Source: Alphaproteobacteria bacterium (GTDB lineage: Bacteria > Pseudomonadota > Alphaproteobacteria > UBA2966). Taken from it: a stretch of 64,000 nt of DNA. The position numbers were made by a program, and so were the translations under genes. Below the pieces are notes generated by a model, which was given only the letters and a program-made list of their open reading frames with translations, ran no database searches and had not been told where the DNA came from. Positions within the stretch are counted from its first letter, which is position 1. Each line of letters starts with the position of its first letter. This document shows positions 5,237-52,077 of the stretch, one piece after another. The stretch is from positions 6,107 through 70,106 of the forward strand of contig JABIFY010000104.1 of assembly GCA_018650465.1 (NCBI GenBank), given 5' to 3'.

Positions 5237-5251
5237 AGGGCTTTAATACCG

Positions 5252-7110: not shown

Positions 7111-7158
7111 AACTTCAGAATTTTAGAATAACAATCCGTATTGCTATGGAGAATAAAT

Positions 7159-7380: not shown

Positions 7381-7443
7381 TTGTGTGTGCCGGCCCGGTC
7401 GGCATCACCAGGATACTGAACAAACAACAGAAGGAAGAAAAAA

Positions 7444-8997: not shown

Positions 8998-9372
8998 ATG
9001 CGGCCACTGTCGAAAAGTTATTTGCGGCTTTCGGTTCTCTATTCGATTATTGGTTTGGGCGTCGGCTTGATGATGGTCTCGGTGGATGATCACAGTCAGA
9101 TGCCTGCGCACGCGCATATCATGCTTATTGGTTTTGTGCTGATGTTTATGTTTGGTGTGTTCTACCGTTTGTGGCCGGAGGCCGAGGCCGGTTGGCTGCC
9201 GGTTCTGCATTTCGCTTTGACTCAAGCTTCCTTTATCGGATTTATGATCGGCTTCTGGCTCTATTACGGCGGCAATCCGGATATGGGAGAAACGCTCAGG
9301 GCGCCGTCAACGACTGTGTTTTTCTTTAACCAGTTCTTGTTTGGCTGGATTGTCTTCAAGGCAACGCGTTAA
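8998..9372 (+). CDS. Small hydrophobic membrane protein (3-4 predicted TM helices). Function unknown.
   Basis: A strong AGGAGG ribosome-binding site lies 8 nt upstream. The protein has hydrophobic segments IIGLGVGLMMV, IMLIGFVLMFMFGVF and FIGFMIGFWLYY. Confidence 0.5.
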   Translation: MRPLSKSYLRLSVLYSIIGLGVGLMMVSVDDHSQMPAHAHIMLIGFVLMFMFGVFYRLWPEAEAGWLPVLHFALTQASFIGFMIGFWLYYGGNPDMGETLRAPSTTVFFFNQFLFGWIVFKATR

Positions 9373-10708: not shown

Positions 10709-10730
10709 CGGATGTTTGACCGCCAGGCGC

Positions 10731-11648: not shown

Positions 11649-11677
11649 TTTTGTATTCCCCTTAAACCCTTATGTTA

Positions 11678-12556
11678 CTAGGGTTTTGGTGCGTCATTAC
11701 AAACAGTTTCCCAAGAAACGCGTCCGGCTTCAATGTCTGATTTGATCTCTGGTACAGAATTAAGCATGGCTGTGGCTTTTTCGTGCGGGCTTTCCGATAA
11801 GGCCAAAGCCGCTGCCTGGCGCTCGACAATGAGTTCGCGACCCAATGGCCAGCCCAGATCATCAATCAGCTCATCGTTGGCAAAGGGGCCGATCATGCGC
11901 CAAAGTTCAGGCGTTATGGTGCGACTGGCGGCCTGACGTTCATGGGCATAATCAATCAATGTTGTTGCCAGGTCCCGATTGCGACGTCCATCCAGGCCCT
12001 GAATGGGATCAAGCTTGCTGCCGATAAAAATGGCTTTCAGCACCATCTGGTTCCAGGCATTTTCGCCAAAGTTTTCGACCGGGTAGGGATTGTTGTGGGC
12101 TACAGCTTCAAACACAGCCTTCATATTGGTGCGCAGACCCTCGCCCGCCCTGGCAACATAACGTTCCCCGTCGGGATAAAGTGGCAAGCCCTGATAAAAG
12201 GCAATGGATTCGCGAACATCTGCGGTAATGCAGAGTTGCTCCAGGCGGCGGGCAAATTCCGGTCCCTCCGGTGTTGCCGCAAGCATGATCACAAGTCTGG
12301 CTGCCTGATCCACACTCCAGTTCAAAGGGCACCAGCCAGATCGAGCTTCATCTGCGGCTTTCATGTCAGCCGCTGTTAAAATCAGATCAGCTTTGCCAAG
12401 CTTGCGCGGTACCAGACTAACGGCAAGATAGAGATCACGATCAGCCGCGCCATCCAAAGCAGCGGCGCTATCAGTCAGCCAATGGAAGGCCTCGTCGGGC
12501 AATTGCTTTTGCAGCCATTCTTGCATGAGTTCCAGGGGGCGTGTGGGATTGCTCAT
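11678..12556 (-). CDS. eboA: EboA-family protein (function unknown; conserved first gene of ebo clusters).
   Basis: A ~290-aa soluble protein with no other recognisable catalytic motif. It sits immediately between the EboE-like and TatD (EboB) genes, 6 bp after eboE, which matches the eboA position in the canonical cluster. The assignment is by context and overall resemblance, not by a run HMM. Confidence 0.55.
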   Translation of the reverse strand: MSNPTRPLELMQEWLQKQLPDEAFHWLTDSAAALDGAADRDLYLAVSLVPRKLGKADLILTAADMKAADEARSGWCPLNWSVDQAARLVIMLAATPEGPEFARRLEQLCITADVRESIAFYQGLPLYPDGERYVARAGEGLRTNMKAVFEAVAHNNPYPVENFGENAWNQMVLKAIFIGSKLDPIQGLDGRRNRDLATTLIDYAHERQAASRTITPELWRMIGPFANDELIDDLGWPLGRELIVERQAAALALSESPHEKATAMLNSVPEIKSDIEAGRVSWETVCNDAPKP

Positions 12557-12562
12557 ATTTGT

Positions 12563-13774
12563 TTACCCCTCAGCCTCTGGTGTCAGTTGCTGTCGAACCC
12601 AGTTCAACTCACGCACGATAGCGTCGACCACATCTACGTTGCGATATTCCGGCGGCAGGACATTCCAGGTGTAAGTTTCAACTTCAAGATGGCTGGAGAT
12701 TGGTTTTTTACGATGGATGGCCAGTATTTCCCGGATGAAGTTTTGGGTCGTGGCAAATTCACCAAGGTCATCAAGAAATATCGGCACATGAAAATGCACC
12801 CGCCACTCCTCTGCGCTGGCGCCAGCGGCGTGGGACTCAAAGGCCTGTTGCAGATCAATGTGGCGGGTCAGATTGCCGCTGGAATTGGCCACGGTCTGGT
12901 GCAGATAAATCGCATCATCAAAAGGTTTCAACAGCTCCAGCGTGCGATCTGTCACTGGCGCAAAACGCAATCCAGCGCTGATTTGCATTTTGCCGATATT
13001 GATGTTGGCGGCTTCCAGTTTGCGAACGACCTCGTCGGCCTCTTCAAATTCAACTGCCGCATGGCAAAGATCAAGGCAAAGGCCCAGATGACGGCGCAAG
13101 GCCGCTTCAGCGTCTGCCGCATCCAGCGACGTCAATCCCATCAACTGATCACGGGCTGCCGCCGAGAAGAGCCAGGTTTCAAAAAATTCGACGGATTCGT
13201 CTATGGTTTCGATGAAACAACAGGGCTCAGGCTCCAGCGTCAGCGAGATCAGCTTGCCCGTGCGCTGATGGATGTCGACCAGATGGGCCGCGTGCCGGAC
13301 CATGTTTTCCATAATTTCAGTGATATCACGGTCGGACATGATCAGGGTTTTGAACGCGCCAGGCACGGTACTGATACTGCCGTCCATACCATCCGGCAAT
13401 ATATCTGCCAGAATATCAGCCAGCTGGTTGGTGTATGTCAGACGGGCGTTGTCCCGCCAGTCCGGCAGATAAACATTTTCTTTGACCGGCGTGCCGTGAA
13501 AGTCGCCGTAGGGAAAACCGTTCAGGGTAAAGACATATAGATTCTGCTGTGCAAGAAAATCTTTGAATTCAGCCAGGGCTTCTGGCCGGGCCATGTCGTT
13601 GGCTGCAATGGCCGATAACCGTAAACCCATACCAAAGGCTTCATCCGGGACCAGTGCCGCCTTGGCCCGCGGTAAATAATTTTCCAGGCTGGCACGTACA
13701 TCAGGCCAGGTTTCCCCAGGGTGAATGTTGGTGCAATAGGTTAGATGACAATCACCGTCGGGATCGAGTTTCAT
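12563..13774 (-). CDS. eboE: Xylose-isomerase-like TIM-barrel protein, EboE-type ('metabolite traffic protein EboE').
   Basis: N-terminus CHLTYCTNIHPGE and sugar-phosphate isomerase/epimerase-like barrel signature. It is the first gene of the minus-strand operon and is followed by eboA and eboB. Confidence 0.7.
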   Translation of the reverse strand: MKLDPDGDCHLTYCTNIHPGETWPDVRASLENYLPRAKAALVPDEAFGMGLRLSAIAANDMARPEALAEFKDFLAQQNLYVFTLNGFPYGDFHGTPVKENVYLPDWRDNARLTYTNQLADILADILPDGMDGSISTVPGAFKTLIMSDRDITEIMENMVRHAAHLVDIHQRTGKLISLTLEPEPCCFIETIDESVEFFETWLFSAAARDQLMGLTSLDAADAEAALRRHLGLCLDLCHAAVEFEEADEVVRKLEAANINIGKMQISAGLRFAPVTDRTLELLKPFDDAIYLHQTVANSSGNLTRHIDLQQAFESHAAGASAEEWRVHFHVPIFLDDLGEFATTQNFIREILAIHRKKPISSHLEVETYTWNVLPPEYRNVDVVDAIVRELNWVRQQLTPEAEG

Positions 13775-13805
13775 ACGTGATCGTCCGTTTCAGGTTCCAG
13801 GTGAA

Positions 13806-13858
13806 AATTCATAGGTAAAACTTCATAGGTAAAATTTCATAGGCAAGATTTCATAATG
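13806..13858. promoter_or_regulatory. Array of four imperfect ~14-bp direct repeats (consensus wTTCATAGGyAArA), 32-85 bp upstream of the eboE start codon. It is a candidate operator/iteron for the minus-strand ebo operon.
   Basis: Read directly: ttcataggtaaaa at 13808-13820 and at 13822-13834, ttcataggcaaga at 13836-13848, and tttcataatg from 13849. Confidence 0.4.
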
Positions 13859-14062
13859 TCAAAAAGTCTGACGCCGCGGCCTAATTTATGGCCCTGCGGC
13901 TATTCATGACCTGCTTGTCCCGAAATCCACAAATTCGCCAGCCTGATCAAACTTCAATCCGGTTTAGTAAAGTTTATTAACGTACTCGCATTTTTGGTCC
14001 CTGTAACCTGACGTCTGGAAAATCTCTTGGCGTTTGCGCCAAGTGCGCCATTGAAGGCAGCG

Positions 14063-14100
14063 TCCAGCAGGAACTCAAGCGCCCAGCAGGAACTCAAGCG
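14063..14100. repeat. Perfect 19-bp tandem duplication (yCCAGCAGGAACTCAAGCG x2) in the eboE / PQQ-dehydrogenase intergenic region.
   Basis: Read directly from the sequence. Confidence 0.6.
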
Positions 14101-14464
14101 ACGCACCCACAAGGTTTGCATCTTTCCAACTATCGGATCTCTTGAACGCTTCGTCAGCGCAGTTCTCGTAGAAATTGACGGCAAAAGGGAAAACAGGACG
14201 GCTGATTACGGCAAAGTGAAATTTCAAAACATCTGGTTGCTTAATCCCTTTTTGTCAGTAAACTTGTTTGGCGGAGGGGTGTTGAAATAATCAATATTAT
14301 TTAATCTCATATCTATTTCACATCTTAAGACCCCTTTTTGGGCGTTTTTGAAACCCCTTTTGGGGAATTATGTGGTCTAACTTTAGCTTGTAAAATCAAT
14401 GTGTTGCTAAAGTTTCACTCTACCGATAACAACTAATAACAGTTAATACAGGAAGAGGTATATT

Positions 14465-15760
14465 GTGCACAAATTACAAAAATTAGCTGTATCTGCAGCT
14501 GTATCCTTGGCGTTTATTGGCAGTCCTGCCATGGCCTTGGATGTTAAAGTTGAGGCCTTTGCAACAGGACTTGAATCTCCTATTGACCTCAAGGAAGCAC
14601 CCGATGGTACCGGGCGAATTTTCATCATGGAGCAGACAGGCGCGATTGTCGTGGTCAATGCCGACGGTACGATGAGGGCAAAACCATTTCTTGACCTGAG
14701 TGCCAAGATCGTCAAGCAATATGTCCGCTTTGATGAGCGGGGCACGCTGGGGTTTGCATTCCATCCAGACTATAAGAATAATGGCAAATTTTATGTCTAT
14801 TCCAGTCGGGAAATTGTGCGTGAAGCAGAAGGTTTGACCCACGAGATTTTCGGCAACCACACCGCCTATCTTTCCGAGTACAAAGTATCCGATAACCCCA
14901 ATGTTGCTGATGCTGGTTCGGAACGTGTGCTGATGAAGATCGAACAGCCACAATTCAATCACAACGGCGGTACGATGGGATTTGGACCTGACGGCAAACT
15001 TTATCTCGGCCTTGGCGATGGTGGATTTGCCGATGACTGGGGTTGGGGCCATAATAAAGCGACAGGCAACGCGCAGGACTTAAGTAACCTTTTAGGCAAG
15101 ATTTTGCGGATCGATGTAGATTCAAAGTCTGAAGGTCTTGAGTACGGGATTCCAGCGGACAATCCCTTTGTTAATCAAAAGGGTGCCCGGGGCGAGATCT
15201 TCGCATATGGTTTCCGCAACCCTTGGCGGATGACCTTCGACACTGGCGGCACGAACGAACTCTTCGTGGCCGACGTTCAACAGAACAGTTACGAGGAAGT
15301 GGACATCGTTACCAGTGGCGGCAACTACGGCTGGCGCGTAATGGAAGGAACTCACTGCTTCGATTACCACAACCCGAATGACCACCTGAAGTCCTGTGAT
15401 TCCAAAAACATGATTGCTCCAATCATCGAGTACAATCACTGTGTCAAGTTCAAGGGCAAAAATTGCGATGGTGTGAACGTGATTGGTGGTTCTGTCTATC
15501 GCGGCAGCCACAAGGCGTGGCAGGGTAAATACATCTTTGGCGACTGGAGCATGACCTTCGGTGGCAGCAGTGGCAGGCTTTATGCTGCGACCAAAAGTGG
15601 TGGCAAATGGAGCTTCGAGCGTGCCAATGTGACCAATGATAAATTCAAAACTCATATCCTGGCCGTTTTACAAGACCTTAAAGGCAATGTTTACGCCTTA
15701 ACGTCGGGTTCTATGGGGCCATTCGGCTCTCGCGATACAGTCTATAAGATCGTACCGTAA
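14465..15760 (+). CDS. Periplasmic PQQ-dependent sugar dehydrogenase (soluble glucose/sorbosone dehydrogenase, SGDH beta-propeller family), paralogue 1.
   Basis: GTG start with an AGGAAGAGG ribosome-binding site. Signal peptide with the AMALD cleavage region. GSDH family motifs are present (RGTLGFAFHPDY; HNGGTMGFGPDGKLYLGLGDGG). Confidence 0.8.
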   Translation: MHKLQKLAVSAAVSLAFIGSPAMALDVKVEAFATGLESPIDLKEAPDGTGRIFIMEQTGAIVVVNADGTMRAKPFLDLSAKIVKQYVRFDERGTLGFAFHPDYKNNGKFYVYSSREIVREAEGLTHEIFGNHTAYLSEYKVSDNPNVADAGSERVLMKIEQPQFNHNGGTMGFGPDGKLYLGLGDGGFADDWGWGHNKATGNAQDLSNLLGKILRIDVDSKSEGLEYGIPADNPFVNQKGARGEIFAYGFRNPWRMTFDTGGTNELFVADVQQNSYEEVDIVTSGGNYGWRVMEGTHCFDYHNPNDHLKSCDSKNMIAPIIEYNHCVKFKGKNCDGVNVIGGSVYRGSHKAWQGKYIFGDWSMTFGGSSGRLYAATKSGGKWSFERANVTNDKFKTHILAVLQDLKGNVYALTSGSMGPFGSRDTVYKIVP

Positions 15761-15894
15761 GTCTGAATAAACCGGAAAGAAGCCTGGTCGTCCAAGGGCG
15801 GCCAGGCTTCTGCCGTTTACAGAACAATTTCCGCTGTTTGTATTGTTTGATTTCATTTCGAAAAGACGAATTTCTCAGATAGAAAAGACGAATA

Positions 15895-16332
15895 ATGACG
15901 AAGCTACTCCAGTTCACTTGTTTTGCTCTGACTTCAGGTCCCCGTCTCCAGCCAACCACTTTCTTTCCAGGATTGCGCAAGTCTCCCGCTTCCTTGGCTG
16001 GCATCGCGCTGGTGCTTTTTGTCTTTTGCATTGCTGGAGGTGCCCCAAGCGCAAACGCCTCGCCTGAGGCCAAAGCGCTCCTACTGGAAAAAGGGTGTGG
16101 TGGCTGCCACTATATTCCCGGAGTTGAAGACGCCTACGGCGATGCCGGGCCGTCCCTGAAGGGTATGAAAACGCGAAAACGCCTGCTTGGGGGGAAGCTG
16201 AAAAACACCCCGGAAAACATGAAGGCTTGGCTGATGAATCCTGGATCGGTAAAATCGGGCACTGTGATGCCCAATTTAGGTCTTACCAACGAAGACGCTG
16301 ATATCATGATCGAATATTTCAAAAAAATCTAA
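15895..16332 (+). CDS. Small c-type cytochrome (mono-haem, CxxCH), secreted.
   Basis: Haem-binding motif CGGCHYIP with a downstream Met ligand region (GTVMPN). A hydrophobic signal segment is present (IALVLFVFCIAGGAPSANA). The true start is probably internal to the track ORF, near 15960-15990. Confidence 0.65.
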   Translation: MTKLLQFTCFALTSGPRLQPTTFFPGLRKSPASLAGIALVLFVFCIAGGAPSANASPEAKALLLEKGCGGCHYIPGVEDAYGDAGPSLKGMKTRKRLLGGKLKNTPENMKAWLMNPGSVKSGTVMPNLGLTNEDADIMIEYFKKI

Positions 16333-16618
16333 GACCTCCAGGCAAACGTCCAAATGCTACACGCCCTCTTTCGTCTTCAAGCGTATTACCAATTGATTCC
16401 GGAAAATGCCGGCATGGGAAGAGGCTTATGACCGCGACGAACGTATTGCTGATGTCGCCTGGATCCTGCATTGCAAGTTCGCTCTGTAGATGTGAGTCGA
16501 ACGCCGGGGCATCTCTTCCGCTCCCGGCATTATCGAACTCGTTTGTGTCAATGCGCCACAAAACCCGTTTGACCCGTTCGGCGACAATCCGGGCCAACAG
16601 CAAAGGACGAGGTCGGGA

Positions 16619-17737
16619 ATGAGTGATCCTTCCATTCGTCAACGCAAACTGGATCATGTCGCGCTCGCCATGAGCGATGCGGCGGTCTCTGCCTGTGATC
16701 CAGGCTGGTCCGACGTAACCCTTGTGCCGGTCACCTTGCCAGAGACAAGCCCGGACGATGTTGATCTCGCGTTGAGCTTTCTGGGCTTTGATTTGCGGGC
16801 GCCCATTTTAATTGCGGGCATGACAGGTGGCCATCCGGACGTCGAAAAAATTAATGCCGCCCTCGCCACTGCCGCGCAGGCCCATGGCGTGGCCATGGGT
16901 GTGGGCAGCCAGCGTGCCGCTTTGCTCGACCCTGATCTGGTGCCGTCCTATGCCATTGTCCGCCAACATGCGCCCGATGCCTTTATTTGCGGCAATATCG
17001 GCATTTCGCAGGTTCTGGAAGGTGAGACCGGCACAGACATATTGGCCCGGCTGGTCGACATGGTCGAAGCCAACGCCCTGGCCGTCCATATCAATGTCCT
17101 GCAGGAACTGGTGCAGCCGGAAGGTGATATTAAACCCGGTGGTGCGTTTGAGGCCCTCGGCAACATGGTGGCCAAATCGCCGGTGCCGGTGATTGTCAAG
17201 GAAACCGGCTGTGGCTTTGATCAGGTTACCGCAAACCGGCTAAAGGATACCGGGATTGCGGCCATTGATGTCGGCGGCATGGGCGGGACCAGCTTTACCC
17301 TGATCGAAGGTATGCGTGCAGAAACAGCCAGGGACCGACGCGGTGCACGCCTGGCCCAAACCTTTTCCACTTGGGGTATTCCGACGGCCTGCAGTGTGTT
17401 GGAAGTTCGCGACACCGGTTTGCCGATTATTGCCACAGGCGGCATTTCAGATGGACTTCAGGCCGCAAAGGCCTTGTCGCTGGGCGCACATCTGGTTGGC
17501 ATTGGCCGCAAGATGTTGACCGCAGCCGTTGCGGGACCAGAGGCCGCTGTCGAAGAACTGGGGCTGATTATTGAAGAAATCAGAATCAGTCTGGCTTTAA
17601 GTGACTGCCGTAATCTGAAACAATTTGCGACACGTCAATCGGTGTTGTCCGGCAAGGTCGCTTTGTGGCAGGCCCACAAGCAACTCACGAAGAGCGCTGA
17701 CGGCAGCGACGAAAAAAATATCGGGGGAACAGACTGA
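16619..17737 (+). CDS. fni: Type 2 isopentenyl-diphosphate delta-isomerase (FMN-dependent IDI-2).
   Basis: IDI-2 hallmark motifs are present: RKLDHV (RKxxH), IAGMTGG, MGVGSQR, AVHINVLQELVQPEGD and VIVKETGCG. The protein is 372 aa. Confidence 0.85.
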   Translation: MSDPSIRQRKLDHVALAMSDAAVSACDPGWSDVTLVPVTLPETSPDDVDLALSFLGFDLRAPILIAGMTGGHPDVEKINAALATAAQAHGVAMGVGSQRAALLDPDLVPSYAIVRQHAPDAFICGNIGISQVLEGETGTDILARLVDMVEANALAVHINVLQELVQPEGDIKPGGAFEALGNMVAKSPVPVIVKETGCGFDQVTANRLKDTGIAAIDVGGMGGTSFTLIEGMRAETARDRRGARLAQTFSTWGIPTACSVLEVRDTGLPIIATGGISDGLQAAKALSLGAHLVGIGRKMLTAAVAGPEAAVEELGLIIEEIRISLALSDCRNLKQFATRQSVLSGKVALWQAHKQLTKSADGSDEKNIGGTD

Positions 17738-19114
17738 ATGCGCAAGACGGTTGTCATCAATGTGGTGGGGTTGTCGCCTTCGATGGTAGGGGCGAACACA
17801 CCGAACCTAAAAAAACTCAGCGATAAAGGCGGCATACGACCCCTGCACACGGTCACCCCGGCAGTGACCTGTGCCTCACAAGTCACCTATCTGACGGGCA
17901 CCTTGCCAAGTGAGCATGGCATTGTGGGCAACGGCTGGTTCTTCAAGGATTTGTCGGAAATCTGGTTTTGGCGCCAATCCAATAAACTGATCAAGGGCGA
18001 ATGGGTCTGGGAGACGGCCAAGGCGCGCGACAAGACATTCACCTGTGCCAATATGTTCTGGTGGTACAACATGTACCTCACGGCGGATATTGGCGTGACG
18101 CCGCGGCCCATGTATCCAGCCGACGGGCGCAAGTTGCCAGACTGTTATGCCAAGCCAGAAAGCTTGCGGGTTGAGTTGACCAAGAAACTTGGACGTTTTC
18201 CCCTGTTCCGGTTTTGGGGACCAGCTACGGACATCTCATCCAGTCAGTGGATTGGTGATGCGACCGTTCATGTGCGCGAAACCAGTGACCCGACCTTGAC
18301 CCTGGTCTACTTGCCGCACCTTGATTACAACCTGCAACGCCTTGGCCCCGACCATCCTGATATTGCCGTCGACCTGCGCGAAGTGGATGGGGTTTGTGGC
18401 CAGATTATCGACCAGGCCGAAGCCGATGATGCCCGGATCATTGTATTGTCGGAATATGGCATCACGCCCGTCAATCGTCCCGTCCATCTAAATCGTGTGT
18501 TGCGCCAGGCTGGCCTCATTCAGGTGCGCGAGGAAGAGCACGACAAAGAGATACTTGATCCCGGTGCCAGCGGGGCTTTCGCCGTGGCAGATCATCAGAT
18601 CGCCCATATATATGTCAACGACAAAAGCCGTCTGGCGGAAATCAAAAGCCTGATCGAAGCCCAGCCCGGCGTCGAGGAAGTGCTGGATGCCGCTGGCAAA
18701 GTGGAACGTGGCCTCGATCATGACCGGGCAGGGGATCTGGTGGCAATTTCAGATGCGGACAGCTGGTTTACTTATTATTATTGGCTTGACGATGCCAAAT
18801 GCCCGGACTTTGCCCCCACCGTCGAAATCCATCGCAAGCCGGGTTACGATCCGGTGGAACTGTTCATGGACCCGGCGATTACCTTCCCCAAGGTTGCGAT
18901 CATTTGGCGGCTGGTCAAAAAAATACTGGGCTTTCGTACCCTGATGGATGTCATTCCGCTGGATGCCAGCCTGGTCAAGGGATCGCATGGGCGACCCACA
19001 GACGACGATCAAGAAGGGGCTGTCTTCATGACCTCTGACGCCGCCTTCGCCGAAGAGGGGCCATTAGCCCCCACAGCCGTTAAGGACATGATCCTGCGTC
19101 ACGTGTTTGAATAA
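17738..19114 (+). CDS. eboF: Alkaline-phosphatase-superfamily nucleotide pyrophosphatase/phosphodiesterase (EboF-type).
   Basis: Type I phosphodiesterase/NPP family N-terminus (VVINVVGLSP...TPAVTCASQVTYLTGTLPSEHGIVGNGWF), with a Thr nucleophile context. The start codon abuts the fni stop, which suggests translational coupling. Confidence 0.72.
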   Translation: MRKTVVINVVGLSPSMVGANTPNLKKLSDKGGIRPLHTVTPAVTCASQVTYLTGTLPSEHGIVGNGWFFKDLSEIWFWRQSNKLIKGEWVWETAKARDKTFTCANMFWWYNMYLTADIGVTPRPMYPADGRKLPDCYAKPESLRVELTKKLGRFPLFRFWGPATDISSSQWIGDATVHVRETSDPTLTLVYLPHLDYNLQRLGPDHPDIAVDLREVDGVCGQIIDQAEADDARIIVLSEYGITPVNRPVHLNRVLRQAGLIQVREEEHDKEILDPGASGAFAVADHQIAHIYVNDKSRLAEIKSLIEAQPGVEEVLDAAGKVERGLDHDRAGDLVAISDADSWFTYYYWLDDAKCPDFAPTVEIHRKPGYDPVELFMDPAITFPKVAIIWRLVKKILGFRTLMDVIPLDASLVKGSHGRPTDDDQEGAVFMTSDAAFAEEGPLAPTAVKDMILRHVFE

Positions 19115-19225
19115 ATTATGTAATATGTCTAACGATGGACAAATAATCACATTTATGGCTAGGCTGACACTTGAGATTGATCATCGGGGGATGATTGGAG
19201 CCGATCATTTGGGGATGGCAAATTA

Positions 19226-20443
19226 ATGGCTGAGGCACGAGATATGGGTGATCTGGATACGGAACTGCAATCGGGCACGGATGTGTATATGCAGCAGTTT
19301 TCTGTGCCCTTCGCTTATCCCGTTTATTTTACCAAAAACATGTTCGCTGCGGACAACGAGGTTTTTATCAAGGCCTTGACCCGTCTGGAAAGCCACCGAC
19401 AGCATCGCTTTGTCACGTTCATTGACGCCGGTGTGGCTGATGCTCTGCCGAATTTGGCCGATGACATTACAAACTATGCTCAGGCCAATGCGGAAACCAT
19501 TGATCTGGTCGCAGCACCGGAAATTATTTCCGGCGGCGAAGGTGTCAAAAACGATCCGGACCTTATTGCCCGATTGCAAAAACAAATGCTGGATTTGCGT
19601 ATTGATCGACATTCCTTTGTCATGGCCATCGGTGGCGGGGCCTTTCTGGATATGATCGGCTATGTGGCGGCCACGACACACAGGGGCCTGCGTCTGATCC
19701 GGGTGCCGACAACTGTCCTGGCACAAAACGATTCCGGTGTTGGGGTCAAAACCGGGGTGAACGCCTGGGGCTCAAAAAATCTACTGGGCTCCTTCGCGCC
19801 GCCGTTTGCTGTGATCAATGATTCGACCTATTTGGCGAGCCTGAATGAACGGGACCGGCGGGCCGGTATGGCGGAAGCCGTCAAGGTGGCCCTGATCAGG
19901 GATGGCAGTTTTTTTGCCGCCCTAGAAGCCAATGCCGAAGCCCTGGCCCGGTTTGATCCCCCCGCAGTTAATCACCTGATCCGGCGCTGTGCTGAATTGC
20001 ACATGCATCAAATTGCCTTTGGTGGTGACCCGTTTGAAGCTGGCAGCGCCAGGCCACTGGATTATGGCCACTGGGCGGCGCACAAACTTGAGTCCATCAC
20101 CGACCATGCTGTGCGCCACGGTGAAGCCGTGGCCATCGGTCTGGCCCTGGATACCCGCTACAGTGTTGCCAAAGGCTTGTTGGCACCGGGCAATGAAGAC
20201 CGTGTGTGTGCCTTGCTGGACAAGCTGGGCTTTGATCTCTGGCATCCGGCGCTGGAGATGCGCAATGAGGATGGCATTCTGACAATTCTGGCGGGCTTGC
20301 GAGAGTTTCGCGAACATCTGGGTGGCGAATTGACCATTACCTTGTTGACCGGAATTGGCACCGGGCATGAAGTAAACGAAATGGACGAGGCTATTATTCT
20401 CGACAGTCTGGCCTGGCTCAAAAATCGTGCCTCAAACAAATAG
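19226..20443 (+). CDS. eboD: 3-dehydroquinate-synthase-family sugar-phosphate cyclase (EboD-type).
   Basis: DHQS fold motifs are present (AIGGGAFLDMIGYVAA; NDSGVGVKTGVN; metal-binding His context HGEAVAIGL). Confidence 0.8.
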   Translation: MAEARDMGDLDTELQSGTDVYMQQFSVPFAYPVYFTKNMFAADNEVFIKALTRLESHRQHRFVTFIDAGVADALPNLADDITNYAQANAETIDLVAAPEIISGGEGVKNDPDLIARLQKQMLDLRIDRHSFVMAIGGGAFLDMIGYVAATTHRGLRLIRVPTTVLAQNDSGVGVKTGVNAWGSKNLLGSFAPPFAVINDSTYLASLNERDRRAGMAEAVKVALIRDGSFFAALEANAEALARFDPPAVNHLIRRCAELHMHQIAFGGDPFEAGSARPLDYGHWAAHKLESITDHAVRHGEAVAIGLALDTRYSVAKGLLAPGNEDRVCALLDKLGFDLWHPALEMRNEDGILTILAGLREFREHLGGELTITLLTGIGTGHEVNEMDEAIILDSLAWLKNRASNK

Positions 20444-20461
20444 ATTCCGGAACAATATTTG

Positions 20462-21346
20462 ATGAATATTCAGATTGCCCTGCGTCTTGGAAGGGTCTCG
20501 AATTTACCCACTGTCTGGACCAATGTTCTGGCCGGACTGACGCTCGCCAGTGTAAGTGCTGGTACGAGCGCGAGCTCGGCACAAATCTGGGCCTTGATGA
20601 TTTCCATGACGTTTTTCTATCTCGGCGGTATGTATCTGAATGACGCCTTTGATGCGGAAATTGATGCGGCGGAGCGCCCGGAACGGCCCATTCCATCCGG
20701 TCAGGTGTCGGCCCGACTAATCTTCCACCTGGGCTTTGGCATGCTTTTACTGGGCATTGCCGGCTTGGCCTGGGCCGGAACGCAATTACCAAATGGCACG
20801 GGCTGGGGCCCGGCGATTGCCGGTCTGGCCTTGGCGGCCTGTATCACATTTTATAACTGGAACCATAAAAATAACCCGTTGAGTCCCCTGGTCATGGGCG
20901 CTTGTCGCATGCTGATTTATGTGGCCGCAGGACTGGTGCTGACGACGTCATTGCCGAACGGACTGTATTTCGGGGCAGGTGTATTGCTGTGTTATTTGAT
21001 CGGTTTGACCTTTGCTGCCAAGCAGGAAAACCTCAATCAAATCACTAATCTTTGGCCCCTGATCTTTCTGGGCATTCCCTTTGCTTATGCAGCGGGCATG
21101 CTGGAAATCGATCAGACAAGTCTGGTTATTCTGGCGGTCTTTTTGCTCTGGGTTTTGTACGCCCTGTCCTTTTTGGTCTTCCCGTCCCGGATCAATGTGC
21201 CGCGGGCTGTGGTTTCCCTACTGGCGGGGATATGCCTTCTGGATGCCTTGCTGATCGCCGCCAGTGGCGAGACAAACCTCGCTCTGTTTGCCCTGGTTGG
21301 ATTTCCACTGACCCTGGCCTTCCAGCGCTGGATACCAGGAACCTGA
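20462..21346 (+). CDS. eboC: UbiA-family aromatic/polyprenyl prenyltransferase (EboC-type), integral membrane.
   Basis: UbiA Asp-rich motif NDAFDAEIDAAERPERPIP. Eight or nine hydrophobic helices. I placed the start at ATG 20462. TTG 20459 is also in frame. Confidence 0.8.
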   Translation: MNIQIALRLGRVSNLPTVWTNVLAGLTLASVSAGTSASSAQIWALMISMTFFYLGGMYLNDAFDAEIDAAERPERPIPSGQVSARLIFHLGFGMLLLGIAGLAWAGTQLPNGTGWGPAIAGLALAACITFYNWNHKNNPLSPLVMGACRMLIYVAAGLVLTTSLPNGLYFGAGVLLCYLIGLTFAAKQENLNQITNLWPLIFLGIPFAYAAGMLEIDQTSLVILAVFLLWVLYALSFLVFPSRINVPRAVVSLLAGICLLDALLIAASGETNLALFALVGFPLTLAFQRWIPGT

Positions 21347-21375
21347 CTATTTAAAAAGATTTTGATGCGACAGAT

Positions 21376-22815
21376 TTGAAAATTGGGGACACCATGAAAA
21401 AAACCTGTCTGGCAATCGCGATAACCTTTTCTCTTGGCGGTGCTGCGATGGCGGCTGAAGCCCTGCCGAAGGTTACGCTTGAACTTGTGGCGGAAGGTTT
21501 GTCCGCCCCGCTCTTGCTTGTGGCGCCGCCGGATACCAGCGGTCGGAAATTTATTGGCGATCAGCTCGGTGTGATTTATGTGCTGGAGGCAAACGGCAAT
21601 AAACTTGCCGCACCGTTTCTCGACTTGCGGGATAAACTGACGCCACTGAAACAAGCCTTTGATGAACGCGGTTTGCTGGCCCTGGCCTTCCATCCGCAAT
21701 TTGCCAAAAACGGCAGGTTCTACGTCAACTACAGTGCCAAAAGACGGCCAAATTCCCCCTTTACCGGCAAGACAGCCTACACCTGGCGAACCTCGGAGTT
21801 TAAAGTTTCGGCCAGTAATCCAAACCGTGCTGACCCGGCCTCCGAACGGGTTTTGCTGGAATTTGACTGGGTCAATCGCAAACATAATGGCGGTGGCCTG
21901 GCCTTTGGCCCCGATGGCTATTTATATGTCGGTGTTGGTGATGGCGGCGGGGCCCATGGTGTGCCTGATGTCTACGTACCGCCGAAACGGGACGAGGGCG
22001 ACGCCTATCGTCATGCAGACGAAATCGACGAAGACCCGTTCAAAATACCGAAACGTTTTCATAAATATGATCGCTATGCCCAGGATACCCAGCGCCTGAA
22101 GGGCAAAATCTTGCGTCTTGATATAAATCCCGAAAATACTGACAAGGGCCACCCAGGTTACGCCATTCCCCTGACCAATATTTTTCGTGGTAAATCAGAA
22201 GGTCGTGACGAGATTTACGCTTGGGGTTTCCGCAACCCTTTCCGTTTGTCCTTTGACCGCAGTGGCAACGGTGACATGTTTGTCAGTGGGGTCGCTGAAT
22301 CGTTTTGGGAAACGGTTTACCTGGTCGATAAACAGGGGAACTATGGCTGGTCAGTGCGGGAGGGGCGGCATTGTTATGAGCGCGCCCGTGCCTTCAATCC
22401 ACCAAAAGACTGCCCGAAAACCGGCCTGCTGGGTGAGCCTATCCGCGATCCCGTGATCGAATATGCAAATTGGTCCGTCAAACGGAAATGGTCGAAGGTT
22501 GATGCTGACCCCATGGGCACTGCTAATATTGGCGGCTTCCTCTATCGCGGAAAAGCCCTGCCATCGCTCTATGGCAAGTTTGTTTTTGGCGATTTCAGTT
22601 CGGTCATTCAACGGCCTTCGGGGCAGATATTTGTGGCCACCCCGCAAGCCGTCTGGAAGTCTCTGTGGAGAATCGAAAAACTGCATCAAATGAATGTGCG
22701 GCTGCACAGCCTGGGCGAAGACAATGAAGGCGAGCTATATTTGATGACAACGGCCCAGGGCATCCCGGTGGGGAATTCCGGCAAGGTATGGAAACTGGTG
22801 CCTGCGTCGCAATGA
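21376..22815 (+). CDS. Periplasmic PQQ-dependent sugar dehydrogenase (SGDH family), paralogue 2.
   Basis: Signal peptide (MKKTCLAIAITFSLGGAAMAAEA). Motifs RGLLALAFHPQF and HNGGGLAFGPDGYLYVGVGDGG are present. It is paralogous to 14465..15760. Confidence 0.8.
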   Translation: MKIGDTMKKTCLAIAITFSLGGAAMAAEALPKVTLELVAEGLSAPLLLVAPPDTSGRKFIGDQLGVIYVLEANGNKLAAPFLDLRDKLTPLKQAFDERGLLALAFHPQFAKNGRFYVNYSAKRRPNSPFTGKTAYTWRTSEFKVSASNPNRADPASERVLLEFDWVNRKHNGGGLAFGPDGYLYVGVGDGGGAHGVPDVYVPPKRDEGDAYRHADEIDEDPFKIPKRFHKYDRYAQDTQRLKGKILRLDINPENTDKGHPGYAIPLTNIFRGKSEGRDEIYAWGFRNPFRLSFDRSGNGDMFVSGVAESFWETVYLVDKQGNYGWSVREGRHCYERARAFNPPKDCPKTGLLGEPIRDPVIEYANWSVKRKWSKVDADPMGTANIGGFLYRGKALPSLYGKFVFGDFSSVIQRPSGQIFVATPQAVWKSLWRIEKLHQMNVRLHSLGEDNEGELYLMTTAQGIPVGNSGKVWKLVPASQ

Positions 22816-22846
22816 TGCAGGCCATCAGCAACCGGATTTAATCCGC

Positions 22847-24367
22847 ATGACGTTGCCAACGCCGCTTACAAAAGGACAGGAAAAAAAGGTCCTGATGACA
22901 ACAGCGATTGTCAGCGGCATGGGCTTTGCTGACATGATGGCTGTTAATACAGCTCTGCCGGTTATGCAGGCTCAGCTGGGCATGGATGCGGCCAGCGCTT
23001 TGTGGGTGGCTGAAATTTATCTTCTGTTTGTGGCTTCGTTGATGATGATGGGCGGGGCTCTTGGTGACCGGTTTGGTTATCGCCGGGTTTTGCGCTATGG
23101 CATTATTGCCTTTGCAGCATCGTCCCTGTTCTGTGCGGCGTCGACGTCAGGTGACATGTTGATTTTTGCCCGCGCGACCCAGGGTCTGGCAGCGGCCATT
23201 GTTCTGCCCTCCAGCCTGGCCCTGCTAAATGCCTGTTTTCCAGCGGCTCAACGCGGCATGGCGATTGGCAGCTGGACGGCCATTAGCTCCATGATGATAC
23301 CGCTCGGACCACTTGCCGGTGGGGCGGCGGTTGATCTTCTGTCCTGGCACTGGATCTTTATTATCAATCTGCCGCTATGTGCCGCTGCATATTTCTTTCT
23401 GCGTGGTGTGCCAAGACCACCTTTTGGGCAGACGGCAACGGCTCGCCTGGACATTATTGGCATCATCGGAATTACCAGCGGCTTGGGCGCTCTGGTCTTT
23501 GGTTTACTGGAAGGCGCGCGGCGTGGTTTTGCTGATGATCTGGTGATTGTTTCTCTCATCGCTGCCGCAATTTTGCTGCCGCTTTTGATTGTTTATGAAG
23601 CAATTTGCAAGTCTCCCATGCTGCCCTTGTGGATGTTTCGGCGGCGTGTTTTTGTCTTGGTGAACATGCAAACTTTTCTGTTTTTTTCCGGCTTCCAGGG
23701 TGCGTTGTTCTTGCTGCCCTTCTTTCATATTCAGGTCTATGGCCTCACAGCCCTTCAGGCCGGTGCCGCCGGTTTGCCCATATCTATCGCCATGGTGTTA
23801 TTGTCTCGTGCCGTGGGAAAGTTAATGGACAAACACGGTGCCGGGCCTTTGTTGGCCAGTGCCCCGTTTCTGATTGCAGGTGGATTATTCTGGCTGGCCC
23901 AGGTGCCAGCCGACGGGACCTATTTTCGCCACGTCTTGCCACCTCTTGTCATATTGTCCACAGGGATGGGATTTTTTATTGCGCCACTGACAACGGTGGC
24001 CCTGAACGCCGCGGGAGAAGGGCGCAGTGGCTTGGCCTCGGCTGTAAATAACACCATGTCCAGGGTCGCGGGTTTGGTTTCCGTCGCCATGATGGGCGTC
24101 TTGCTGACCAACGGCTTTACAAAAAGCCTTGCCGCAAATCTGGCTGCTTTGGGCCTTGATGCAGAACAGTTGTCGTTAATTAATGGCCAGGTTCAACGCT
24201 TGGCTGCCCTGGTGCCACCTGCCTCCCTCAGTCAGGACCAGGTGGATGCCCTGGACATGACCGTTCGCACAGCCTTTACTGTCGGTTTCAGCGATGCTGT
24301 ATTGGTTGCCTCGGCTTCAATGGCGCTGGCGGGCGTTGTCGGCGTGATTGGTTTGAAGAAGTTTTAA
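22847..24367 (+). CDS. MFS transporter (14-TMS drug:H+ antiporter DHA2-like).
   Basis: The protein is about 506 aa with many hydrophobic helices. MFS motif A-like sequences GDRFGYRR and LGPLAGG are present. Confidence 0.8.
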   Translation: MTLPTPLTKGQEKKVLMTTAIVSGMGFADMMAVNTALPVMQAQLGMDAASALWVAEIYLLFVASLMMMGGALGDRFGYRRVLRYGIIAFAASSLFCAASTSGDMLIFARATQGLAAAIVLPSSLALLNACFPAAQRGMAIGSWTAISSMMIPLGPLAGGAAVDLLSWHWIFIINLPLCAAAYFFLRGVPRPPFGQTATARLDIIGIIGITSGLGALVFGLLEGARRGFADDLVIVSLIAAAILLPLLIVYEAICKSPMLPLWMFRRRVFVLVNMQTFLFFSGFQGALFLLPFFHIQVYGLTALQAGAAGLPISIAMVLLSRAVGKLMDKHGAGPLLASAPFLIAGGLFWLAQVPADGTYFRHVLPPLVILSTGMGFFIAPLTTVALNAAGEGRSGLASAVNNTMSRVAGLVSVAMMGVLLTNGFTKSLAANLAALGLDAEQLSLINGQVQRLAALVPPASLSQDQVDALDMTVRTAFTVGFSDAVLVASASMALAGVVGVIGLKKF

Positions 24368-24398
24368 CGTGCGCGCAATCGAGTGAAAGAGGGCTGTC

Positions 24399-25397
24399 AT
24401 GAACAAAGATCTTTTATTTGGTATTCAGACCAATGGCATTCGACATACAGAGGCCGATGGCATGCCTGATATCGACACCCGCTTCGCCATGGTGCGCGAC
24501 GCCGGTGTGTTTGACTATGTGGACAAAACACCAGATCCCCACGAAATAGAAGATTTCCGGGCGGCCTCAAAAAAATATGGCTTGCCGGTGCGCGGCAGTG
24601 GCTGGTTTTATGCCGTTGGTCGCGACGAAGACTTGTTGGCCAACAATCTGGCCATTGCCGGTGACCTGGGATCAACCGTGCACAATGTTCAGGTCCTGGC
24701 CAAGCGCGCCGATGGTGAACTTGCCAGCAACGAAGACGTCGTCAATTTCTATGAAACATCGCTGGAACTGGGTGACAAACAGGGTGTCATGCCCTGCCTG
24801 GAAGTTCATGTGAATATGTGGTCCGAGGATTTCCGCCGGGTCACCCCTGTAGCACATCTCGCAGAATCGCGCGGGTTGCCCTTTCGCATGACCCTGGATC
24901 ACAGCCACGTCATTTTCAAAATGGATAATCCACGGGAACAACAGGTCTTTGATATCAGTAGCGATGTGGCGTCAGGCAAACTGGTGCTGGACCCCTTTGT
25001 GGATGGTGATGTGTGCAGTGAATGGATCGACAACAATTGGATCGGCCATTGTCATGCCCGCGCTGCGGTACCGAATAATCCCTTGAATACTCAAGCCAGC
25101 GATGAAAACGGCAATCCGGGTCGTGGCATTCAGTATCCCTTTGCCGAACCTGCCCCTGGCACCTGGCATGCAGACTGGGATTTGGCGGCCCTGGAGCCCT
25201 GGAAAGAAGTTGTGCGGAAATTATTGCGTCATCACGCCCAAACTGACGACAGCCCGCTGGGTCAGATATCAACCGAATTTATTCCCAACCTGGATTACGG
25301 CGAGGGCTGTCGTTATTCCCTGTTTGATCAGGCCATTGCCTGCGTTGAATGGATGCGGGTGGAATGGGATACAGCGCAGTCGTTGGCATCCTCCTAA
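24399..25397 (+). CDS. Hypothetical protein. Possibly a xylose-isomerase-like TIM-barrel (sugar-phosphate isomerase/epimerase-like) or a metal-dependent enzyme.
   Basis: I recognise no clear family. His/Glu/Asp-rich segments are present (HVNMWSED, LDHSHVIFK, GHCHAR). It is tightly linked to the downstream reductase, 6 bp away. Confidence 0.4.
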   Translation: MNKDLLFGIQTNGIRHTEADGMPDIDTRFAMVRDAGVFDYVDKTPDPHEIEDFRAASKKYGLPVRGSGWFYAVGRDEDLLANNLAIAGDLGSTVHNVQVLAKRADGELASNEDVVNFYETSLELGDKQGVMPCLEVHVNMWSEDFRRVTPVAHLAESRGLPFRMTLDHSHVIFKMDNPREQQVFDISSDVASGKLVLDPFVDGDVCSEWIDNNWIGHCHARAAVPNNPLNTQASDENGNPGRGIQYPFAEPAPGTWHADWDLAALEPWKEVVRKLLRHHAQTDDSPLGQISTEFIPNLDYGEGCRYSLFDQAIACVEWMRVEWDTAQSLASS

Positions 25398-25403
25398 AGA
25401 ACC

Positions 25404-26483
25404 ATGGAAAAACGCATATCCATCCTGCCAAGCGGGCACAGCTTTTGGGCGGAAGAAAATGAGTCGATCCTTCAGGCCGGGCTGAAGGCAGGCTTTGCCA
25501 TGCCCTATGGTTGTTCCAACGGCACCTGTGGTTTGTGCCGGGCGCGGCTCATCGAGGGCGAGATCGAGACCATCAAACATACGGACTACCCTTTTAATGA
25601 GCGGGAAAGGTCCCAGGGATTTATACTGACCTGTGCCTGTTCTGCTGTGTCAGATGGCGTGGTTCTTGATGTTGCCGAAGCCGGAAGCGTCGATGATATT
25701 GCCCATCAGGAAATCATGGTCAGGGTTCGGTCGATTGTGCCCGCGGCAGAAGACTTGTTGATCGTGCGCGTGCAAACCCCGCGCAGCCAGCGCTTTCGTT
25801 TTCTGGCCGGACAAAATGCGGCCCTTGTCGTGATGCGCGATGACGATGTCATTGCCACCCGGACCTTGCCGGTTGCCAGCTGCCCCTGCGATGACCGGAA
25901 CCTGGAATTTCATGTTGTACGCCAGGATGATGATCGTTTGTTCGAGGAACTGTCAGGTCAAAATGGCAAGGTCAGGGAATTAACATTAACCGGTCCGACC
26001 GGGAATTTTGTCTTGAACCACTCGGCCGGCCGTCAATATGTTTTTGTGGCGCAGGATACGGGTTTTGCACCTGTGCGCAGCCTCATCGAACATGCCATGT
26101 CCCTGGACGAAGATGCACACATGCAATTGTTCTGGCTGGCCAGCGCAACAAGCGGACATTACCTGGAAAACCTTTGCCGGTCATGGGCCGATGCCCTCGA
26201 CAATTTCAATTTTGAGTTACTGGACGGTATGCAGGAAATTGACCTGGTGCAAAAGGTGCTTGCAGAAGATGGCGCGAACCCGGACAGGGAAATCTTCATC
26301 GCCGGAACGGACGAATTTGTTTCCACCCTTGAGCGCGATCTTTCAGCCGTTGGTATTACCGGACAGCTGCCTCACCTCAATCGGCTGCAAGATCAGTCCG
26401 GGTCAGCCCAGACCAGCGATGGCGAAGGTGCGGGACGTGGAAGCCAGAACGTGAAAGTCACGACATCCTGCGTCTCAAACTGA
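25404..26483 (+). CDS. Ferredoxin-NAD(P)+ reductase-type oxidoreductase with an N-terminal plant-type [2Fe-2S] ferredoxin domain (oxygenase reductase component-like).
   Basis: [2Fe-2S] cysteine motif CSNGTCGLCRARLIEG...C. A C-terminal FAD/NAD-binding FNR-like fold is present. Confidence 0.78.
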   Translation: MEKRISILPSGHSFWAEENESILQAGLKAGFAMPYGCSNGTCGLCRARLIEGEIETIKHTDYPFNERERSQGFILTCACSAVSDGVVLDVAEAGSVDDIAHQEIMVRVRSIVPAAEDLLIVRVQTPRSQRFRFLAGQNAALVVMRDDDVIATRTLPVASCPCDDRNLEFHVVRQDDDRLFEELSGQNGKVRELTLTGPTGNFVLNHSAGRQYVFVAQDTGFAPVRSLIEHAMSLDEDAHMQLFWLASATSGHYLENLCRSWADALDNFNFELLDGMQEIDLVQKVLAEDGANPDREIFIAGTDEFVSTLERDLSAVGITGQLPHLNRLQDQSGSAQTSDGEGAGRGSQNVKVTTSCVSN

Positions 26484-52076: not shown

Positions 52077-52077
52077 C

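Follow-up and report, generated by a model that had tools for sequence, protein, structure and literature searches.

Two secreted GSDH-family proteins and a c-type cytochrome in an alphaproteobacterial ebo cluster

Introduction

What do secreted dehydrogenase-like proteins and a c-type cytochrome do inside a cluster of ebo genes? The question is raised by a locus on contig JABIFY010000104.1 (positions 6,107 to 70,106, forward strand) of GenBank assembly GCA_018650465.1, from an Alphaproteobacteria bacterium of the UBA2966 lineage, in which genes for two secreted propeller proteins of the GSDH family, GSDH-1 and GSDH-2, and a gene for a small cytochrome c are found together with the ebo genes. 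The window (the whole stretch of 64,000 nucleotides (nt) that was analysed) had been the subject of a preliminary description, which proposed that these genes form a periplasmic oxidation module dependent on pyrroloquinoline quinone (PQQ). The results reported here indicate that the ebo cluster found in the window, an alphaproteobacterial variant, has gained genes for a periplasmic redox module.

A preprint of May 2026 (10.64898/2026.05.21.724671) reports that thallusin biosynthesis is determined by the ebo genes; in it, compounds of the thallusin type are described as drimane-quinoline meroterpenoids and ebo clusters were counted in 3,304 of 124,295 genomes. The quinoline core is derived from a cyclitol made by EboD and from aspartate, EboC farnesylates 6,7,8-trihydroxyquinaldic acid, and no enzyme was identified for the oxidative rearrangement and ring opening that lead from saccharoquinoline to thallusin, a compound that chelates metals (10.64898/2026.05.21.724671). 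A proposal made in 2018 was that the ebo genes move a precursor of scytonemin to the periplasm (PMC6282210). The preliminary description had likewise framed the module in terms of metabolite delivery to the periplasm and of a cyclitol or sugar substrate, a framing that predates the assignment of ebo to thallusin and is not retained here. No mention of a GSDH, of PQQ or of an accessory cytochrome in ebo clusters was found in the main text of the preprint or in the ebo literature that we searched.

Results

Two secreted propeller proteins and a cytochrome c

Open reading frames (ORFs) were called mechanically and domains were assigned by Pfam and NCBIfam profile searches of the window proteins. 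GSDH-1 matched PF07995 with 134.7 bits (E=5.8e-39, profile positions 1-328 of 332) and GSDH-2 matched it with 75.7 bits (E=5.4e-21), the cut-off being 25 bits, and the motif HNGG...FGPDG..Y...GDGG is present in both. The ORF of GSDH-2 spans 21376-22815 and its likely start is the ATG at 21394, with GGGGA just ahead. Hydrophobic cores were seen in both N-termini, which were read by eye as Sec-like: VHKLQKLAVSAAVSLAFIGSPAMA followed by LD in GSDH-1, with cleavage between AMA and L, and MKKTCLAIAITFSLGGAAMA followed by AE in GSDH-2, with cleavage between AMA and A. The two secreted paralogues announced in the preliminary description are thus confirmed at their positions. They share 36% identity from end to end (E=4e-79), and the nearest named relatives of their genes are found in marine Rhodospirillaceae and alphaproteobacterial metagenome-assembled genomes (MAGs).

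The AlphaFold2 model of GSDH-1 (predicted local distance difference test, pLDDT, 87.5; predicted template modelling score, pTM, 0.88) shows a helix (residues 2-19) at the N-terminus, before the propeller, and a Foldseek search with this model gave HHIP (3e-29), sGDH (2e-22) and Asd (4e-19). The model predicts a six-bladed beta-propeller for GSDH-1, and the same fold is suggested for GSDH-2 by its 36% identity to GSDH-1. The best solved relative of both proteins by sequence was the HHIP propeller (E about 1e-38), followed by 3A9G, 1C9U, 2ISM and 2G8S.

The cytochrome encoded downstream of GSDH-1 contains CGGCH at nt 16096-16110 and a distal Met in VMPN, and it scored 27.7 bits on PF00034 (cut-off 21.3). 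Its signal segment is hydrophobic and ends in PSANA, ahead of SPEAK, while its mature part is conserved in close and distant homologues; it matched generic class-I models only. The presence of this CxxCH cytochrome had also been noted in the preliminary description, and the partnership proved to be conserved, since a small cytochrome c gene directly follows the GSDH gene in eight of the nine contexts of GSDH-1 relatives that were inspected. Cytochromes 37-91% identical to that of the window lie downstream of the GSDH-1 orthologues in loci L083, L084, L085 and L088, and nearly all ebo-linked GSDHs have a cytochrome c immediately downstream. GSDH-2 of the window has no cytochrome of its own. Three GSDH clades were distinguished, each with a separate cytochrome family, that of clade III resembling cytochrome cL (MoxG) and PedF (98.8 bits on the MoxG model), and GSDH::cytochrome c fusions occur in related loci. 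The co-evolution of GSDH-cytochrome pairs argues that the cytochromes are dedicated redox partners, and we infer that the cytochrome c of the window is the electron acceptor of GSDH-1.

Linkage of GSDH genes to ebo genes

Three independent samples of loci were compared. The first consisted of 80 loci (L003-L082) obtained with GSDH-2 as the query against GTDB species representatives and searched by tblastn with all window proteins, the second of the contexts of nine GSDH-1 relatives selected by contig extent and identity only, and the third of 80 loci obtained from metagenome contigs with EboE as the query, the relatives being at least 46% identical to the EboE of the window. The taxonomy labels of MAGs may be wrong.

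Ebo genes were present in 13 of the 80 loci of the first sample. Nine Rhodobacterales loci, including that of the cultured Marimonas arenosa (KCTC 52189), share a common layout (GntR; GSDH1-like, dihaem cytochrome c; DedA, eboB, eboA; GSDH2-like, eboF; eboC, eboE, eboD); in each of the loci seen, eboA and eboF flank the GSDH2-like gene. This layout shows that a second order of Alphaproteobacteria retains both types of paralogue and a cytochrome with the ebo genes. In the second sample, five of the nine contexts were inside ebo clusters, those of P0123 (88% identity to GSDH-1), P0149 (76%), P0186 (53%), P0221 (52%) and P0181 (56%, in a Methylomirabilia MAG), and the cluster of P0149 contains two tandem GSDH-cytochrome pairs. 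At least one GSDH gene was found in 23 of the 80 loci of the third sample and in 12 of the 19 loci of at least 20 kb, for a total of 27 GSDH genes in 0.88 Mb.

The linkage persists over at least five ebo gene orders and at least three GSDH clades, and it reaches Methylomirabilia and gammaproteobacterial MAGs. Since ebo clusters occur in 3,304 of 124,295 genomes (10.64898/2026.05.21.724671) and a genome has few GSDH genes, we estimate the probability of chance adjacency to be well below 1%. The linkage of GSDH to ebo genes is not due to chance; it recurs over lineages and gene orders, and the redox module adjoining the ebo cluster that was pointed out in the preliminary description stands as a recurrent association, far above chance.

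Ebo genes and GSDH-cytochrome pairs repeatedly have as neighbours small TMEM220 genes and genes for DedA/VTT-domain proteins, the latter weakly similar to UptA of the polyprenyl-phosphate transporter family (L017, L044, L085, L086 and L168). These neighbours may point to the flipping of a prenylated intermediate across the membrane. In MAG GCA_049680625.1, the ebo cluster of L085 includes two tandem GSDH-cytochrome pairs while a GSDH-2 orthologue (73%) is found on a separate contig (L019), so that GSDH-2-type genes can co-occur with ebo genes to which they are not adjacent.

Catalytic residues

Residues were numbered on an sGDH reference whose sequence is identical to 1C9U. Equivalents of the catalytic base His144 of sGDH (in HNGG) and of the pair Arg228-Asn229 (in RNP), residues with roles beside the C5/C4 carbonyls of PQQ, where they polarise the cofactor (PMC6881810), are present in both GSDH-1 and GSDH-2 and are invariant in 39 homologues. 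HHIP has His-Asp (in glhdp) where GSDH-1 and GSDH-2 keep Arg-Asn-Pro.

A different arrangement was seen in loci without ebo genes from Saccharospirillum, Natronospirillum and Trueperaceae (L032, L033, L035/L036 and L042), where tandem pairs consist of an intact GSDH (HDGG) and, behind it, a GSDH with a cytochrome c domain fused to its C-terminus. The fused copies have lost the catalytic His (TNAG) and have RNH in place of RNP; such a TNAG copy may be a non-catalytic electron-transfer subunit.

Organisation of the locus

The ebo locus is compact and consists of two divergent units (9356-26483) according to the ORF listing and the Pfam and NCBIfam matches, with all six genes eboA-F present and clustered (Table 1). 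The minus-strand unit contains eboE, eboA, eboB and a FAD_binding_2 oxidoreductase gene, whereas the plus-strand unit runs in the order GSDH-1, cytochrome c, idi2, eboF, eboD, eboC-like, GSDH-2, a major facilitator superfamily (MFS) permease gene, a TIM-barrel protein gene and a 2Fe-2S/flavin adenine dinucleotide (FAD) reductase gene. The statement of the preliminary description that the dehydrogenase genes bracket the ebo genes is accurate for idi-eboF-eboD-eboC but not for eboE-eboA-eboB, which are divergent and lie upstream of GSDH-1.

Table 1. Features of the ebo locus and of its divergent intergenic region (positions in the window).
Feature	Position	Strand	Evidence
FAD_binding_2 oxidoreductase, flavocytochrome-c/KstD-like	9356-10747	-	PF00890 E=1.7e-49; TIGR01813 212 bits, below cut-off
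EboB, TatD-family hydrolase	10731-11648	-	PF01026 E=1.1e-17; syntenic with eboA, eboE
EboA	11678-12556	-	NF035938 EboA_domain 159 bits (cut-off 50); NF035937 269 bits (cut-off 320)
EboE, TIM-barrel	12563-13774	-	NF035939 473.5 bits (cut-off 250)
Divergent eboE/GSDH-1 intergenic region, AT-rich, 690 nt	13775-14464		GC 0.42
GSDH-1, secreted protein, predicted six-bladed propeller, 431 aa	14465-15760	+	PF07995
Small class-I c-type cytochrome, 145 aa	15895-16332	+	PF00034, CGGCH
Type-2 isopentenyl-diphosphate isomerase (idi2)	16619-17737	+	TIGR02151 351.9 bits (cut-off 281.3)
EboF, type I phosphodiesterase/alkaline-phosphatase superfamily	17738-19114	+	PF01663 E=1.2e-63
EboD	19226-20443	+	NF004852 570 bits (cut-off 333)
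EboC-like UbiA prenyltransferase	20459-21346	+	PF01040 53.6 bits
GSDH-2, second secreted protein, probable propeller	21394-22815	+	PF07995
DHA2/EmrB-type MFS efflux permease, candidate exporter	22847-24367	+	PF07690 E=7.4e-47; TIGR00711 228.4 vs cut-off 230.2
Xylose-isomerase-like TIM-barrel protein, weak match	24399-25397	+	PF01261 22.7 bits, below cut-off
2Fe-2S ferredoxin + FAD/NAD reductase, BenC-like	25404-26483	+	PF00111 E=5e-12; NF040810 99 bits, below cut-off

The gaps between genes from idi to the 2Fe-2S reductase are of -1 to 111 nt, which makes it likely that these genes form one operon. The start of eboF abuts the stop of idi, and GSDH-2 begins 47 nt past eboC and ends 31 nt ahead of the MFS gene. 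The gaps are longer at the beginning of the plus-strand unit, with 134 nt between GSDH-1 and the cytochrome gene and 286 nt between the latter and idi. The EboC-like protein scored 126 bits on NF035940, under the equivalog threshold of 250, and its label is based on the synteny with eboD and eboE observed in many loci. The idi2 gene is present in the window and in L088 and is cleanly missing from L083, an example of variable accessory content among close relatives. The EboB copies of related ebo loci are 69-99% identical, and the TIM-barrel gene is also found downstream of the MFS gene on the contig of P0001.

The start of the FAD_binding_2 gene overlaps the stop of eboB by 17 nt, and the two genes appear to be translationally coupled. 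Their adjacency is kept in L083 and in L088-L091, and the FAD_binding_2 protein might catalyse, in the cytoplasm, a desaturation or an aromatisation in the pathway of this ebo variant. Further upstream, at 46-8622, lies a liu/atu-like catabolic set of the leucine or acyclic-terpene type, made up of genes for an acyl-CoA carboxylase (biotin carboxylase and carboxyltransferase), a thiolase, an enoyl-CoA hydratase, a Zn-dependent dehydrogenase and an AMP-dependent ligase. A dense block of hybrid histidine kinase, Hpt and receiver proteins occupies 36607-52842, and genes for a C39-peptidase ABC exporter and for a cNMP-binding (cyclic nucleotide-binding) HlyD-type protein follow at 52852-56839.

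Intergenic elements and history of the module

The region between eboE and GSDH-1 contains a 14-nt unit, AGGTAAAATTTCAT, tandemly repeated 4.1 times at 13799-13855, 25-80 nt upstream of the eboE start. This array in a divergent promoter region may bind a regulator; the repeat stretch was unaligned in the 87% identical relative L088. A weak C-terminal remnant of a Mutator/IS256-type transposase was detected at 14027-14290 (PF00872 E=0.0019, below cut-off), with a 19-nt repeat of 2.2 copies inside it (14059-14100), and a different transposase fragment, of the rve type, is located at the equivalent position in L083 (8918-9580). The spacer therefore seems to be a recurrent insertion site.

Directly after the stop codon of GSDH-1, a hairpin with a 15-bp stem and a weak U tract is found at 15778-15811. 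The minimum free energy of the segment 15761-15830 is -37.7 kcal/mol (z=-7.55), and none of 200 shuffled sequences was equally stable. Lying between the dehydrogenase and cytochrome genes, this hairpin may serve to end transcription, to attenuate it or to stabilise the mRNA. An Rfam scan of 9000-30000 gave no match at E<=0.1, and a scan for promoter and terminator consensus sequences gave no excess over shuffles. The GC content of GSDH-1 is 0.495, compared with about 0.54, and the dip at 14-16 kb is mostly due to intergenic DNA; composition alone is weak evidence of transfer, since that of GSDH-1 is only modestly lower.

Rough neighbour-joining trees were made from trimmed MAFFT alignments, and motifs were mapped on them. 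The HNGH clade was linked to ebo in three of four unbiased context look-ups, while the HNGG subclade of GSDH-1 is a mixture of ebo-linked and unlinked members. The GSDH2-like proteins embedded between eboA and eboF in Rhodobacterales form a separate clade, the genes of a third clade are located between eboF and eboD, and the clade that holds GSDH-2 is mostly unlinked to ebo. A recent tandem duplication giving GSDH-1 and GSDH-2 is ruled out by their 36% identity and their separate clades. On these comparisons the two are ancient paralogues with different histories, and the local duplication assumed in the preliminary description is abandoned.

The metagenome contig of L088 is colinear with positions 9001-24359 of the window, with 83-88% nucleotide identity. 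A recent insertion of GSDH-2 was considered and is ruled out by the ribosome-binding site and the roughly 25 codons of this gene left in L088. In L083, identity to the window is 87% for the block formed by GSDH-1 and its cytochrome but 73-77% for the ebo genes that flank it; this contrast and the transposase remnants suggest that the GSDH-1/cytochrome pair is an exchangeable cassette at a fixed site of the ebo locus.

Discussion

A possible role in periplasmic tailoring

The reading that we favour, with somewhat better than even confidence, is that the module carries out the oxidative tailoring of an exported ebo product in the periplasm. According to this model, the cytoplasmic and membrane-bound Ebo enzymes would make a prenylated product, with Idi2 feeding the prenyl donor, and the presence of idi2 in the operon fits such a product. 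The MFS pump would carry the product over the inner membrane, a task that a DedA-family protein may perform in other lineages, and the GSDH enzymes would then modify the exported compound oxidatively, so that their substrate would be derived from the ebo pathway. GSDH-1 would hand its electrons to the small class-I cytochrome c, which would deliver them to the respiratory chain. The second enzyme, GSDH-2, would be dispensable and would share a transcript with idi-eboF-eboD-eboC and the MFS exporter. A further observation comes from Table S3 of the preprint, in which locus 788 of Maribacter sp. UH1 is a cytochrome c-GSDH fusion (COG2010+COG2133) and belongs to the 91 genes found in all eight thallusin-producing Maribacter and absent from the single non-producer (10.64898/2026.05.21.724671). 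This locus is not linked to the ebo operon of that strain (loci 2608-2612) and the authors are silent on it (10.64898/2026.05.21.724671); it provides independent, weak support for a role of GSDHs.

Several results weigh against periplasmic tailoring, and the first group concerns linkage. Most of the nearest relatives of GSDH-2 (67-78% identity), which come from marine Rhodospirillaceae and other alphaproteobacterial MAGs, have no ebo genes nearby and lie in variable, housekeeping-like neighbourhoods, the exceptions being P0001, a 92% identical homologue with the same context as in the window, and L017 (DedA-eboB-eboA, then GSDH). GSDH-1-type pairs are found outside ebo clusters (P0155, P0163, P0212 and P0217), and the well-flanked ebo loci L093, L104, L109 and L158 are without the GSDH module. 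GSDH-2 has been precisely deleted from L088, where its ribosome-binding site and first ~25 codons remain; it is thus ancestral at this locus and was lost in the L088 lineage, which indicates that it is dispensable. The strong hairpin and the gaps on both sides of the cytochrome gene make the co-transcription of GSDH-1 with the ebo genes uncertain. Finally, the clusters reported for thallusin producers among Bacteroidota, Cyanobacteria and actinobacteria are six-gene or GSDH-free (10.64898/2026.05.21.724671). With the module missing from some ebo clusters and from the clusters of these producers, it is no obligatory core step.

The second group concerns the cofactor. The Ca2+/PQQ loop Gln246-Gly247-Pro248 was not recognisable, its positions reading VQQ in GSDH-1 and VAE in GSDH-2. 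Equivalents of Lys377, Arg406 and Arg408, the PQQ-carboxylate ligands of sGDH (PMC6881789), were not recognisable, and the alignment of the C-terminal blades was ambiguous by both MAFFT L-INS-i and hhalign: a global hhalign of the family profile with sGDH aligned blades 1-4 well and mis-aligned the C-terminal blades. By eye, the R-x-R position reads K-T-H and R-L-H, which resembles S-G-H of HHIP. TIGR03606 (non_repeat_PQQ), with a cut-off of 434.55 bits, was missed by GSDH-1 (91 bits) and GSDH-2 (40.6 bits), the related ebo-linked GSDHs scoring 60-75 bits, and the closest solved structure, HHIP, is not an enzyme. Profile searches found no pqq genes within the 64-kb window. However, fungal AA12 enzymes are PQQ-dependent without the canonical ligands (PMC4133262, PMC6881789), and by analogy the use of PQQ by GSDH-1 and GSDH-2 is plausible, if unproven. 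The designation of both proteins as PQQ-dependent in the preliminary description reflects family membership only.

Other explanations

GSDH-1 and GSDH-2 could instead be general periplasmic aldose or sugar dehydrogenases, like Asd/YliI of E. coli or sGDH of Acinetobacter, that supply respiration with electrons from sugars of the environment and whose position next to ebo is due to hitch-hiking on an island, in which case the finding would amount to two ordinary periplasmic dehydrogenase genes. We consider this unlikely for the module as a whole and more probable for GSDH-2 alone, given the variable housekeeping neighbourhoods of its nearest relatives and its deletion in L088. GSDH-1-type pairs at 72-73% identity without ebo genes and the cassette-like mobility of the GSDH-1/cytochrome block (87% versus 73-77% in L083, with transposase remnants) are also compatible with hitch-hiking. 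It accounts poorly for an adjacency seen in at least three clades and at least five gene orders, in five of nine contexts and in 12 of 19 well-flanked ebo loci, or for the constant position of the Rhodobacterales GSDH2-like gene between eboA and eboF, and neither protein reached the curated sugar-dehydrogenase model.

A narrower version of the tailoring model, which we regard as distinctly doubtful, is that the module performs the oxidative opening of the catechol ring from saccharoquinoline to thallusin by periplasmic dehydrogenation, with oxygen derived from water and electrons passed to cytochrome c, in place of an O2-dependent intradiol dioxygenase. The absence of a ring-cleavage enzyme from the findings of the preprint leaves room for it (10.64898/2026.05.21.724671), thallusin corresponds to saccharoquinoline plus two O by our own arithmetic from the published masses, the cluster encodes two different secreted dehydrogenases and an exporter, and one of the genes confined to the Maribacter producers encodes a cytochrome c-GSDH fusion. 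On the other hand, that match is one of 91 genes and was obtained against one non-producer, some proteobacterial-type ebo loci are without the module, and thallusin is made by Actinomycetota, which have no periplasm, as well as by Planctomycetota, Bacteroidota and Nostoc, with clusters described without it. No characterised GSDH-family enzyme oxidising a catechol or quinoline was found in the literature that we searched. The known substrates of the family are aldoses and sorbosone. If this version were true, the module would be the missing late thallusin oxidase of Gram-negative carriers, giving a ring-opened tricarboxylate by an oxygenase-free cleavage of the intradiol type that is coupled to the respiratory chain, and the GSDH/HHIP propeller superfamily would gain a class of substrates new to it.

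It is very unlikely that the module acts on the ebo product after its secretion, in the redox processing or recycling of a ferric thallusin-like chelator imported by a TonB-dependent receptor. The idea comes from L168 (Chromatiales MAG GCA_024234915.1), where an HNGH-clade GSDH and its cytochrome c lie amid ExbB-ExbD-ExbD-(unknown)-DedA and a TonB-dependent receptor, and from the binding of metals by thallusin (10.64898/2026.05.21.724671), but it concerns one locus only, which has no ebo genes within 9 kb of the GSDH-cytochrome pair, the window cluster has no TonB receptor, and the literature searched held no precedent. Least probable of all is that the GSDHs bind rather than catalyse, in the manner of HHIP, for instance by carrying the lipophilic product through the periplasm, as could be read from the HHIP match in sequence and structure, the unrecognisable PQQ-carboxylate ligands and the tandem of an intact and a TNAG, cytochrome c-fused copy seen elsewhere, because both proteins keep His144, Arg228 and Asn229, HHIP having His-Asp in place of the Arg-Asn pair, because electron transfer is implied by a cytochrome c that is dedicated and co-evolves, and because AA12 enzymes use PQQ without the canonical ligands.

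Significance

Ebo genes are present in thousands of genomes, and thallusin is a picomolar morphogen of the seaweed Ulva (10.64898/2026.05.21.724671). Tranquillimonas alkanivorans DSM 19547 is among its confirmed producers. The presence of a dehydrogenase and its dedicated cytochrome c within ebo clusters of Alpha- and Gammaproteobacteria, and of at least one Methylomirabilia MAG, supplies a testable candidate for periplasmic tailoring and suggests that part of the ebo pathway runs outside the cytoplasm. It would also place in a physiological setting an HHIP-like branch of the GSDH family that is very large, with thousands of homologues, and uncharacterised.

Comparison with known systems

The enzymes closest in kind to GSDH-1 and GSDH-2 are sGDH/GdhB (1C9U) and the Asd/YliI group (2G8S, 3A9G, 2ISM and 3DAS), with which they have in common the GSDH family, the six-bladed propeller, the periplasmic location and the residues His144 and Arg228-Asn229; by this analogy a two-electron oxidation linked to a dye or a cytochrome would be expected of them. 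However, the window proteins are only 19-23% identical to these enzymes, fail TIGR03606 and have unrecognisable equivalents of residues 246-248 and of the carboxylate ligands, and GSDH-1 is paired with a dedicated class-I cytochrome c inside a secondary-metabolite cluster rather than standing alone. The likeness to HHIP (sequence E about 1e-38; Foldseek 3e-29, TM score about 0.7) extends to the FGD and ...H-[IS]-L...ED motifs of the C-terminal blades, but HHIP is a eukaryotic ligand-binding domain with His-Asp and no known catalysis, whereas the bacterial proteins have cytochrome partners.

The pairing of a secreted PQQ-type dehydrogenase with a linked cytochrome follows the same logic as methanol dehydrogenase with cytochrome cL/MoxG and PedE/PedH with PedF, although the propellers of these enzymes have eight blades and belong to a different family. 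The fungal AA12-AA8 protein CcPDH is a fusion of a PQQ propeller with a cytochrome, which is of the b-type whereas that of the window is of the c-type. Finally, the published ebo/EDB (eustigmatophyte-bacterial operon) cluster consists of the same six genes with the same logic of prenyltransferase and cyclitol, while the cluster of the window is split into two divergent units and contains in addition idi2, an FAD oxidoreductase, the two GSDHs, the cytochrome c, the MFS pump, the TIM-barrel protein and the ferredoxin reductase.

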